NCBI RefSeq assembly: GCF_003334355.1
Contig: NZ_QOWP01000008.1
DNA: 64,000 nucleotides
Direction: 5' to 3' (one strand)
Origin: Escherichia coli
Lineage (GTDB): Bacteria; Pseudomonadota; Gammaproteobacteria; Enterobacterales; Enterobacteriaceae
In this document: piece by piece, positions 58,801 to 64,000 of the stretch
Layout: every line of letters begins with the position of its first letter
Numbering within the stretch: the stretch's first letter is position 1
Program-made: the position numbers

Positions 58801-61800
58801 GGAACCATTGAACTGGACCCTAACGATGATATCGATGCCTTACCCGACGGCATCTACGCCCAGGTGGCGGTTTACTCCGACCATTTCAGCCATGTTTCGG
58901 TGATGCGGAAAGTGCTGCTAAGAATGACCAGCTGGATGCATTATCTTTATTTGGATCATTGAGGGGGAGGGGGGAGATTATGGAACTTTGCTCCTTGTAA
59001 GGACTAATTATTTTTGCATATTACTTCATTAGCTGCGATGATTTTTCTTTAATATTCATTATGTTAATAAGTTCTGGATGAGTGTGCTCTCATTGGATTT
59101 TTTATCCGTCTTGTTCTGCCGCAGGATGAGACTATACATCGTCGAGATCGCAATGATGATATGAGTTGTTCCTCCTGCGACGGCTCTAATCAAAAAAGAG
59201 CAGGAGTGCTTTTCCATCTATTGCGATGATGGCTTTATTATCTGAAGGATGACAGTCACATTTAAAAAATATTTAATCTATAGATCACAATGTAGGGTCA
59301 TGGAATATATGTATACAACTATTTTCTTCTTCACTTTTAATTATCGTATTCATTATAAAACTAAGTTAAAAAAACTCCTGGAGAGTGAGGTATTAATATA
59401 TTTTTAAATAAAATTAAGTTATCATTCATCGATGCACTTTATAGAATCATCAATGGCCATAATAGTACTATTAACTCTCAATTTTATATTTTTATCATCA
59501 CTACAAATATTAACTGAATTTATATCAATGATTTTTTTATTCTTATCTTTTATTTTATTTACTGTTTCAATGCAATCAGCGGCAAGTTGGAGTGGATTTA
59601 TATTTTTCAGATATGGTCTTATGATCTTTCCCTTACTTAATAAATAGCATGTATAGGATTCGGAAAGTCCAGCATCTATTTTGTACCTCATTATATTAGA
59701 TAAGGATGTGAGAAATTCCTTGTTATCATTCGCAGCCATATATGCCAGTCCGAGTTCAGCCTCTGCGGCCTTACAGGCAAAATAGCTTAGTGAACACGCT
59801 TTTCGTCCCTCTTTAGTACTGGCTGATATTAGTGCCCATAATATTGCTTTGTCTGCCAAATCTAACTCTCTCTGAAATTGTCTTGCAGTAACTGCACTCG
59901 CAGAAATAGAGAAAAAAATACAATTGTTAATAACCTTGCCATATTTTTTAGTCCGTAACTGTTAATGTGCTATCTGGCTCTGAAAATATTAACTCATTTA
60001 ATTTTTGCATGTCATTAGATAAACCAGTTATACAACCCTCGGAACAGAATCGAGGTCCTAAAGACGGACCAAAAGCGTTTAAACAACTATGTATTGAAAA
60101 TCCATTGCGATTATAAGTTCCTGTATTAACTGACGGTACTAATCGTATGCCGTCAGGTTTTCTATTGCTTGCTCCCGGGTCATTAACATTCCAACTCCAT
60201 AGGCCTTGAGGTATTGGCCATCTATTTATAAATGTGTACAACGGGGATTATTTTTACATTGCATATTATTACCAGAAGCGACTGGAATACTAAGCACATC
60301 ATAAAAATTATCATCACATGGTATATCTGAAACACACGAAAGCATACCTAAAGTTATGCTGTATAAACAGGTGGCTAATCCCAAGGGGATCGATTCCAGA
60401 AATCGGGTTCAACGGATACTGATAAAAATTCCACCTACCTTCCAGCCCAATCGGAGCCTGAGTGTTATACCGCCCCTGCTGCGGTTAATGTTACCGATAC
60501 TAGTTATAGTACAGCCCTGATTCATCATCATACTACTGCTGCGGCAGTCTGATGAACTATTGCTTTTACGGATTCTCCTTATTCTTCCTTCTATCCATTC
60601 GCTTTAGCTTTTTGAGCTCTTGAAGTTTGCTCTTTGCATCAATATTACCGTTATTTACAGCGAATTCCATCCAATAAATAGCTCTATTCAAATTATAATA
60701 TTCTGATAATGTTGGATTTTTATCTGATAAAAAGACCCCATAATTAAACTGCGCTGTAACATTCCCCTGAGATGCTGATCTTTCCAAGAATCGCAATTGT
60801 TTGTAAATGTTATTTTTAGTAAAGCAGTAATATTGATATAGTCGAAATGATGCCTCTGAATCACCATGTTGTGATTTATACTTCAGTTTCATCAACTTTT
60901 TTTCACTTAAATCATAGGTCATTGCTGTAGACCCCATCATACTTTCGTTTTGTTTTATTTTCACATCAGCACCATGCAATTGACAAATAAAAGAGAAATA
61001 AAAAAATAGTAACAAGCATGCTTTCATACATCTACAACCTATCTTATATCACTGGGTTTTTCTGGCGTACCTTGCATATTAGAAATGGGGTGCCCAGATG
61101 GCCCATATGTTATCCAATTACCAAGGTCTTTTGTTGTTATAGCCATTAGATCCTTATTTGAATTAAGGTTCGTTGGTGCTGTTAGCACTGTATCCATTTT
61201 TAACTTACCATTAGTTCCTCGCCCCCACCACGTCCATAGCGTGTCAGGTCCTATTACATTTGTATGTAACTCTTTAGCTAATTGGCTAGCAAATGAATTT
61301 TGTCCTTTACCTGTATTACAAGAAAATAACCAAACTGTCATCCCATCTTTATAATTCCCATCAAATTTAATTAGATATGCTAGATCTTTAGCTGTCATGA
61401 TACTGCGCGTTGCGGATTCAATAGATGTGGGGGTACCATGCCCCCCGATTGTGAAAACGCCTGGGATATTAATCTCATCAGCTACAGAATGGATAAGATC
61501 ACTTTCGGGGTATAAATTTATATCAACCAAACCTTGCGGATCTACATTTATGACCGGATTCAACGGATACTGATAAAAATTCCATCCCCCCTTCAGTCCA
61601 ATCGGATCCTGAGTGATATACCGCCCCAGCAGCGGGTCATAATAGCGGTGGCGGTTGTAATACAGGCCGGACTCCTCATCATACTGCTGCCCCGGCAGGC
61701 GGATAAGCTGCTGCAGCTGATGCGGGTTCTCTTCATTCAGCAGGTTGCCCCATTCATCGTATTCTGCGCACCATTCTGTTGTCCCTTCCTTGCTGATAAG

Positions 61801-64000
61801 GGCCAGCGGCAGGCCGCGATGGTCGCAGTGGTACAGGTGGATTTTTCGCGCCGGCGTGTACACCGGGTCCATCTGGTTTTGCATCTGCTCCACGGTCAGG
61901 CCGCACGATGCCAGCCAGCGGCGGCTTTCCTCACTCACCCGGTCAGCCAGGATTTCACTTTCCAGCCGGTCGAGCATCTGCACCGTGCCGGCGGGAATCC
62001 CCCACTGTGCATAGGCAACTCACGCTATGAACGCTTCAGCTTATCAATAGCGGAAGTTATAATTTCATTGTCATCAAACTTGTACAACATAGTATCTAAA
62101 ACAGGAAGTAGCGTTTTATCACCTAATTCACCCGCAGCTTCAATGATATCATCATAAACAGTATTTTTTTTTAACTCATCGCATAAAACAGATAAAACCC
62201 TTTTATCTTTTCTGTAGGAAAGTCCGATTATTGCTTCAATACGGACTTCCTCATTTTTATCCTGAAGCATCTCCACAAAACAATCCCTAATATCACTATT
62301 ATCATATTTATTGATATTTATTGCAAATGCGGCCCAGTTTCTGACATCTCCATTTGGATCTTTTAACAGATTAATCAATAGTGGAATTGTTGCTTTATCA
62401 TTGATAACAGAAATAGCAAATGCTGTAGCACGTCTGACATTAGTCGATTTATCAAAAGCAGTAATTTGAGATTGTTCTACTATTTTAGGTGAATAAATTG
62501 GGTTTTTCTTGCATCGCTGAGCCGTTGACTCGATTGCCGTAGCTCGAACGCAAGCGCTCTTATCATTCAATGCCATATTGTTCAAAATATTAAAAACATT
62601 ATCTTCGCATTTTTTGCAAATTTTTATTTGCCCGAGTATAAATGCTCCGATATCTCTACGGATATAATTTTTATCAGAGCAGAACTCAATTGCCAATCTA
62701 ACAGCGTCTTGCCCACCTCTTAACTGTAATACTCTGGCAGATGAAATCCTTTTCAAGGAATTGTGATCATCAAGTAAGCGAAATAATTCATCATCATTTA
62801 GTTTCTTACATTGATTATATAAACCATACTCTTTACTTGCCTTTCTTTTCTGGTATGTATTTGACATTGCAGGAACCTCCACAAGGGCTATCTTTTTTTA
62901 TCGTTTGACTGTCTGGAGTGACGACAATTCCAGGCTTTCTGTGTGCTTTTTGCATCTTTAGCACTAATATCACCACAATCAATTAGTTCCTGAAGTACGT
63001 CACATCTGTCGGGTTTTTTCCCATCACTCCAGAATCTGTCATTTATTATGTCATTGACACGATCAGTTATCCCTGTGTCTGCAACATTTCCACGAGAAGC
63101 TATCATTGTTATATCTAATGCTAGTCCCGGATTATTCAATATTAGAGAGTCAAATATTCTTTGTGATGCTGTATCGTTCCACCATTTTGTCAATGCTTTT
63201 GCAGCATTATCATCTGCTTGCTGCTGTGCAGGGCTTTTGGGCCATGGAATTGGCAAGGGGAATGGTCTAGGAAAAACTTCTAACCCCAGAGGATCTGTAT
63301 TCGTAACTGGATTCAACGGATACTGATAAAAATTCCATCCCCCCTTCAGCCCAATCGGATCCTGAGTGATATATCGCCCCTGCAGCGGGTCATAATAGCG
63401 GTGGCGGTTGTAATACAGGCCGGACTCCTCATCATACTGCTGCCCCGGCAGGCGGATAAGCTGCTGCAGCTGATGCGGGTTCTCTTCATTCAGCAGGTTG
63501 CCCCATTCATCGTATTCTGCGCACCATTCTGTTGTCCCTTCCTTGCTGATAAGGGCCAGCGGCAGGCCGCGATGGTCGCAGTGGTACAGGTGGATTTTTC
63601 GCGCCGGCGTGTACACCGGGTCCATCTGGTTTTGCATCTGCTCCACGGTCAGGCCGCACGATGCCAGCCAGCGGCGGCTTTCCTCACTCACCCGGTCAGC
63701 CAGGATTTCACTTTCCAGCCGGTCGAGCATCTGCACCAGCACCGGCGGGAACACCACACTGCCACCGTCTTCGCCGCCGGACTGCTGAAGGGTATCCGCC
63801 AGGCTGCGGCGCTGCGTTTTCGCCAGCTCACCGGTGGCGGTTTCAACTCTGATGAGTGGCGTGAAGCTCCCCGGCTGATAAATCGTCTGGATGCGGGTTC
63901 TGTCGTTCTGTATTGTGGTCAGCCGGTCGCCGTCCCAGCCGTACCAGGTCACTTGCGGTTTCCGTGACAGCGACATCCAGCCCGTCAGGTCCCGTTCACG

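Follow-up and report, generated by a model that had tools for sequence, protein, structure and literature searches.

We studied a 64,000-nucleotide stretch of Escherichia coli DNA (NCBI RefSeq assembly GCF_003334355.1, contig NZ_QOWP01000008.1), hereafter the window, the last part of which corresponds in its sequence to the rhsA-yibA-'yibJ'-yibG locus of E. coli, on the minus strand. In this region the end of the core of rhsA (copy B) is repeated, at 99.3% identity, at the head of an orphan Rhs module known as 'yibJ' (copy A). Our overall reading, which we consider quite probable, is that the orphan module was displaced, that its copy of the core has recently been converted by rhsA, and that recombination between the two copies would switch the toxin tip. 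For the comparisons described below, we conducted a megablast search against 5,426 complete E. coli genomes and mapped the RefSeq annotation of strains PSS-12 and K-12 onto the window; the coordinates of all features are collected in Table 1.

A near-identical repeat pair at the rhsA locus

Pairwise alignment of copy A (61556-61984) with copy B (63309-63737) was ungapped and in direct orientation, with 426 of 429 bases identical (99.3%), mismatches at 61597, 61621, and 61628 only, and an offset of 1753 bp. A 429-bp match at this level of identity is beyond chance. The first-pass annotation of this DNA had described two near-identical 429-bp direct repeats about 1.75 kb apart with unique sequence between them, in a region to which it gave the gene names rhsA and yibA. 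All of this was borne out: the coordinates proved to be base-exact for the high-identity block, no second copy of the intervening sequence (61985-63308; 1324 bp, comprising the RhsA tip and yibA) was found within 55000-64000, and the RefSeq annotation of the syntenic loci reads rhsA, yibA, a truncated Rhs fragment, and yibG. Outside the 429-bp block, a register-wise comparison of the two copies revealed identity at background level, except for two short degenerate extensions. The extension on the tip side spans ~27 bp (to about 61529) at roughly 70% identity and encodes a PxxxxDPxGL motif; the upstream extension also spans ~27 bp (to about 62012) and contains a 1-bp gap and a few mismatches. 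The search of 55000-64000 additionally revealed a third, decayed copy of the core at 60380-60563, which is 73-75% identical.

Evidence for gene conversion in the orphan core copy

The window does not derive from K-12; the complete genome closest to it is that of strain PSS-12, which is 100.0% identical over window positions 36000-60000. When we compared PSS-12 with the window over 59939-64000, we observed exactly 14 differences, all of them in copy A (61690, 61702, 61705, 61717, 61732, 61736, 61759, 61774, 61775, 61782, 61790, 61798, 61801, and 61881). At 14/14 sites the base in the window is that of copy B, and the flanks are unchanged. For 14 random differences to fall in one 192-bp span of 4,062 bp the probability is P ~6e-18, a value that does not yet require them to match a paralogue. 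The suggestion made at first pass, from the near-identity of the copies, of a recent gene conversion was therefore upheld by a relative that differs over ~4 kb only at 14 clustered sites in copy A, all of which now have the rhsA base.

We then considered how copies A and B compare within other genomes. The two copies differ at 17 sites in PSS-12, at 16 sites in both MG1655 and S17-1, and at 9, 19, 17, and 18 sites, respectively, in four further genomes that were taken at even steps down the ranking of our junction search. In nearly all genomes compared, the orphan copy has one conserved divergent haplotype (here called 'a-type'), and in most E. coli the two copies are, by alignment, about 96% identical. 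Identity of at least 99% to the orphan region of the window was seen in only 9 of 3,434 genomes. Because the differences from PSS-12 are clustered in copy A and the relatives keep the divergent orphan haplotype, we conclude that the near-identity is the derived state in this lineage. It could instead be proposed that the duplication (that is, the displacement itself) is very recent in this lineage and that there was no conversion, as might be expected from the report of Jackson et al. (PMC2935791) that, in the strains that they compared, the core fragments of one locus did not differ between attached and dissociated copies. This we regard as extremely improbable, given that the same junction between yibA and the core fragment is present in 2,946 genomes, that the divergent a-type orphan haplotype is kept in K-12, PSS-12, and the four evenly sampled genomes, and that PSS-12, which is identical in both flanks, has 17 differences between its two copies.

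The limits of the tract could be set to at least 192 bp (61690-61881) and at most 356 bp (61629-61984), since it is bounded by a kept difference at 61628 and by the end of the homology at 61984. Through the conversion, the longest uninterrupted identity between copies A and B went from 103 bp to 356 bp. Regarding the donor, the rhsB core (PSS-12) was ruled out by 8 mismatches inside the tract, and copy B, 1.75 kb away, matches the tract perfectly. We infer from these alignments that rhsA was the source of an intrachromosomal, non-reciprocal transfer by which copy A was homogenised.

Other complete genomes displayed mosaics of a different kind. In A134_1EC, conversion is confined to 61690-61736 and 61881; 184/2aE has one mosaic that is common to both copies; 0H15 has strain-specific variants at the upstream end in both copies; and in Ec-RL2-1X it is the main copy that has orphan-type bases. 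The mosaics thus differ across complete genomes, and therefore exchange at this repeat is recurrent. It may occur in both directions, with rhsB-like donors being possible for the changes in the main copy.

Fused alleles in other genomes

Copies A and B are read in the same frame. At first pass it had been predicted that recombination between them would delete the rhsA tip and yibA and fuse the orphan toxin to RhsA. We constructed this deletion product in silico, such that the orphan tip and one repeat are joined to the rhsA core upstream of 63738, and observed the fused junction, as a single uninterrupted match, in 897 of 5,426 genomes, including O157:H7 and enterotoxigenic E. coli H10407. At least 60 of the fused genomes were 99.1-99.8% identical to the in-silico product. 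The comparison of synteny among strains that the first-pass annotation had proposed revealed that the orphan and the fused arrangements both exist among E. coli. At the protein level, the predicted C-terminal 395 positions (394 residues plus the stop) match the intact 1409-residue Rhs protein of the fused strain 23CRST025 at 394 of 395 positions. The flanks of the locus in 23CRST025 have 4/4095 and 5/5609 mismatches to K-12, which places this fused genome closer to K-12 than PSS-12, which has the orphan form. Since a fused allele resides on K-12-like flanks, we conclude that the orphan and fused forms change into one another on closely related backgrounds.

We also attempted to polarise the two arrangements using the haplotypes at 45 variable sites together with the divergence of the flanks. 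In the fused genomes N273 and EC361, the core follows the orphan-type haplotype as far as 61801, which fits either an ancestor that predates the displacement or a crossover in 61802-61880. The core of 23CRST025, also fused, is of the rhsA type from 61628 upward, consistent with either a recent deletion or a re-integration; in the model of Jackson et al. (PMC2935791), excision and re-integration of a circle make the change reversible. Several fused loci have suffered damage: an internal stop interrupts yibG of O157:H7 MB9-1, rhsA is frameshifted and about 1.1 kb is missing in N273, and the fused gene is interrupted by IS1 in QEC11-421.

Other explanations for the tract

A number of points weigh against a conversion by rhsA that bears on tip switching. 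The donor was assigned to copy B in a comparison that covered rhsB and copy B, and rhsC of the same strain may be another candidate. No gene of a type VI secretion system (T6SS) adjoins rhsA in the nearest relative, PSS-12, which concerns the phenotype that tip switching would have. The orphan tip gave no match in sequence searches of Pfam, NCBIfam, and PDB, and has no recognisable toxin domain in them. For the fused forms, the haplotypes fit an origin by deletion, an origin before the displacement, and interconversion through re-integration of a circle about equally well. The remaining points concern the assembly, in which the 14 sites of a truly divergent orphan copy could have been overwritten, either when a low-coverage bubble was collapsed or through polishing reads that were mapped to the wrong copy. 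The single-nucleotide differences of the tract form one contiguous cluster, as would a bubble that was popped in favour of the more abundant rhs-core path, and the window is without an exact match among the 5,426 complete genomes. Moreover, the four closest matches to its orphan region are the laboratory K-12 assemblies TOP10, XL1-Blue, XL10-gold, and Origami2. In TOP10 the two copies have been homogenised and rhsA is cut short next to oppA, compared to 16 differences between the copies in MG1655 and S17-1. An assembly or polishing artefact nevertheless appears unlikely to us, given that the three tip-proximal differences are kept and the tract stops inside the repeat, and that partial tracts with other boundaries exist in independent complete genomes from other laboratories (A134_1EC, 184/2aE, 0H15, and Ec-RL2-1X).

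The four K-12 assemblies were set aside as corroboration of the conversion; TOP10, the one inspected, has a truncated rhsA. In this assembly (NZ_CP080620.1) rhsA is cut to its last 1.1 kb and abuts oppA, which is either a real rhs-mediated rearrangement or a misassembly. Because rhsA is truncated next to oppA in TOP10, errors or rearrangements do occur in deposited rhs loci. The assemblies of XL1-Blue, XL10-gold, and Origami2 contain unusually many rhs-matching places.

A different source for the tract would be import from another strain, for example from an allele in which a b-type core is fused to the yibJ tip, or copying from a paralogue such as rhsC. Both the fairly high frequency of fused b-type alleles (99.1% or more identity to the in-silico product in at least 60 genomes) and the visible mosaicism of Rhs cores among strains speak for import. 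It would need two crossovers within about 350 bp and would have to have brought in no further difference in 4 kb, when a perfect donor is present 1.75 kb away in the same genome. As for a paralogue, rhsB of PSS-12 is excluded, and rhsC, as present in a different strain, reaches only 97.9% identity with the fused query. Import or a paralogous donor is, in our view, very unlikely, and we continue to favour conversion of copy A by the rhsA core next to it.

Organisation of the locus

By megablast placement, the region sits between yibF/selAB and yibH/mtlA, and the order in relatives is yibF-rhsA-yibA-Rhs fragment-yibG-Rhs fragment-Imm57 pseudogene-yibH. The gene rhsA extends past the end of the window (64000), such that the window holds only its last 1.1 kb; the syntenic RefSeq gene is 4134 bp long. 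Copy A, which in relatives is labelled 'RHS repeat-associated core domain-containing protein, missing N-terminus', specifies 143 residues, all but one of which agree with those of copy B.

Table 1. Features of the rhsA-yibG region, in window coordinates
Feature	Coordinates	Strand	Basis
Repeat copy B: final 429 bp (143 codons) of the G+C-rich rhsA core	63309..63737	-	Alignment; RefSeq 'RHS element core protein' in syntenic PSS-12 and K-12
Repeat copy A: core fragment heading the orphan Rhs module ('yibJ')	61556..61984	-	Pfam RHS PF03527, E 7.4e-15
Minimal putative gene-conversion tract in copy A	61690..61881	.	14 sites unlike PSS-12 and K-12, all equal to copy B
RhsA C-terminal toxin tip, Ntox34, including stop codon	62888..63280	-	Pfam PF15606, E 6.7e-44; translation
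yibA, HEAT-repeat protein	62025..62867	-	NCBIfam NF007244, 466 bits; RefSeq WP_000072850.1 in PSS-12 and K-12
Orphan toxin tip	61039..61527	-	Translation; frame intact; after 10-residue PxxxxDPxGL motif at 61557-61528
yibG, Sel1-repeat protein, presumed immunity gene of the orphan tip	60566..61027	-	Open reading frame; RefSeq 'sel1 repeat family protein'
Decayed third copy of the core, interrupted by in-frame stops	60380..60563	-	73-75% identity; annotated Rhs pseudogene, internal stop
Frameshifted Imm57-family immunity pseudogene, part of the oldest displaced module	59422..59942	-	Transferred from the RefSeq annotation of PSS-12 and K-12

As judged from its sequence, the region has the standard anatomy of an Rhs main gene followed by a chain of displaced orphan tips (PMC2935791, PMC3150448). 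An RHS/YD-repeat core is recognised in copy A by PF03527, and the core pieces have a G+C content of 0.53-0.66, compared to 0.30-0.44 in the A+T-rich tips and immunity genes. The boundary between core and tip is marked in both copies by the PxxxxDPxGL motif, where the similarity stops. Downstream immunity genes are present by position, with yibA lying 20 bp past the rhsA stop and yibG 11 bp past the orphan stop. The orphan is start-less, as its frame opens right after a stop codon (62020-62022) and runs through 143 core residues before reaching the tip. Linkage to a T6SS (vgrG or PAAR) was not found at the locus, where the genes upstream of rhsA in PSS-12 and K-12 are yibF and then selAB. Such linkage does not define an Rhs pair, although delivery by the mechanism known in Salmonella depends on it.

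The RhsA tip consists of 130 residues (G+C content of about 0.37-0.41) and is preceded by a 10-residue PxxxxDPxGL motif at 63310-63281. The orphan tip consists of 162 residues and is unrelated to it. At 61284 the window and PSS-12 have a G, with the tip frame intact, and MG1655 and S17-1 have an A, which produces an amber codon in the orphan tip. In K-12, yibA is the cognate antidote that neutralises the RhsA tip, according to the passage in PMC3150448 that cites Vlazny & Hill (1995). Our NCBIfam search returned nothing for either tip, yibG, or the Imm57 remnant, and a promoter and terminator scan of 60300-63400 returned sites that were no more numerous than in shuffled sequence and so do not bear on whether yibG is expressed independently. 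Farther downstream, the decayed core fragment is a remnant of an older displaced tip. The whole of 59422-60563, which comprises this fragment and the Imm57 pseudogene, resembles the relic of a tip module that was displaced earlier.

Exchange at other rhs sites

In strains 2015C-3121, EC187792, and CI5, we noticed that the Ntox34 tip at the rhsA locus is replaced by an RhsB-type tip with yhhH, and that yibA and the orphan module are kept. At the rhsB locus of PSS-12, there is a fragment of a yibA-like HEAT pseudogene just after yhhH. These arrangements suggest that the rhsA and rhsB loci exchange material. In 22AH104, a tip of the yibJ type, a Sel1-like gene, and the decayed fragment are found on a full-length Rhs gene elsewhere, next to rpmE/priA; further displaced tips (ybfB and 'dsORF-f3') and insertion sequence elements are present downstream of it.

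Proposed explanation and its significance

In the explanation that we propose, the full-length rhsA copy of the core stands before the Ntox34 tip and its antidote gene yibA, and the other copy is a start-less and presumably promoter-less fragment that stands before an older orphan tip and its Sel1-type partner, yibG. The duplication would be the footprint of C-terminal displacement, as the model of Jackson (2009) implies: a cassette made of a core fragment, a tip, and an immunity gene would have entered the locus through homologous recombination, and the tip that was there before would have been moved downstream. A still older decayed fragment and the Imm57 pseudogene lie beyond it. A stretch of 192-356 bp of the orphan copy would have been overwritten by the rhsA copy through non-reciprocal gene conversion. 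Recombination between the copies would then excise a 1753-bp circle containing one core fragment, the Ntox34 tip, and yibA, and would join the remaining rhsA core in frame with the orphan tip, by which the displayed toxin would be switched. The fusion allele exists in nature; in this particular strain, the switching and its functional effect are predictions that we draw from the DNA.

The rate of homologous recombination depends on the length of uninterrupted identity. Because of this general dependence, and because perfect identity between the copies was extended from 103 to 356 bp, the conversion has probably raised the rate at which the deletion and the circle would form; provided that the conversion is real, toxin tips should be switched more often in this strain. 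An argument made for Salmonella (Koskiniemi 2014, PMC3967940) is that a simple deletion also loses the main immunity gene, which here is yibA, and that recombination after a duplication may therefore be favoured. Conversion of orphan cores could even be a recurrent, selected form of 'homology maintenance' that keeps silent toxin cassettes recombinable, an idea that we rate as a long shot. If true, the rise in identity from ~100 to ~350 bp would increase tip switching in some lineages and rhs would be a tunable toxin-switching device, like the silent-cassette systems.

Both the architecture and the toxin-swapping recombination are already known, from the work on C-terminal displacement (Jackson 2009) and on orphan activation (Koskiniemi 2014). 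What is added here is minor: a clean natural case in which an rhsA core appears to have overwritten the orphan fragment downstream of it, with a tract of 192-356 bp in this strain and other boundaries elsewhere, and a population count of about 2,946 orphan versus 897 fused complete E. coli genomes. Beyond such bookkeeping, the case matters little.

Comparison with known systems

The nearest known system is the rhsA element of K-12, which Feulner et al. reportedly described in 1990 with a partial core repeat downstream. It shares with the window the locus, the gene order, the junctions, and the 1753-bp spacing. The two differ in that the K-12 copies are unlike at 16/429 sites (96.3%), compared to 3 here, and in that the K-12 orphan tip has an amber codon at the equivalent of 61284, where the tip in the window is intact.

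The rhs-main/rhs-CT-orphan pair of Salmonella LT2 (STM0291/STM0292) likewise consists of a full-length rhs and its immunity gene, followed by a start-less core fragment with an orphan tip and immunity gene; the homologous stretches are directly oriented, and through recombination the main gene acquires the orphan tip. In LT2, experiments demonstrated recombination between main and orphan over 522 bp that are 95% identical (Koskiniemi 2014, PMC3967940). That pair lies in a T6SS island, and both its recombination and growth inhibition have been demonstrated, whereas the 429 bp at 99.3% described here are known as sequence and rhsA has no adjoining T6SS gene in the nearest relative.

The C-terminal displacement model (Jackson 2009, PMC2935791) describes dissociated tips in series, with a same-clade core fragment at the head of each, and predicts a circle made of the core fragment, the tip, and the intervening gene; its counterpart here would be the 1753-bp unit. 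That model does not discuss conversion of dissociated fragments by attached ones or the reverse; at the rhsA locus the fragments are normally ~4% diverged and are homogenised only in some strains. The orphan cdiA-CT/cdiI and rhs-CT modules (Poole 2011, PMC3150448) are also silent toxin/immunity pairs that lie downstream of the main gene and retain a conserved upstream stretch, although most of those examples belong to another delivery family (CdiA/CdiB). Our literature search returned nothing specific on gene conversion between Rhs main and orphan cores, and for 'yibJ' it returned only an unrelated report on single-nucleotide polymorphisms.

As an analogy only, the pilS/pilE system of Neisseria, which is cited within PMC2935791, also involves non-reciprocal transfer between an expressed gene and silent partial copies with conserved segments in common. 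In pilin variation, it is the silent copy that donates variable sequence to the expressed gene. Here, in contrast, the expressed rhsA would have donated conserved sequence to the silent copy, with the variable tip left unmoved.

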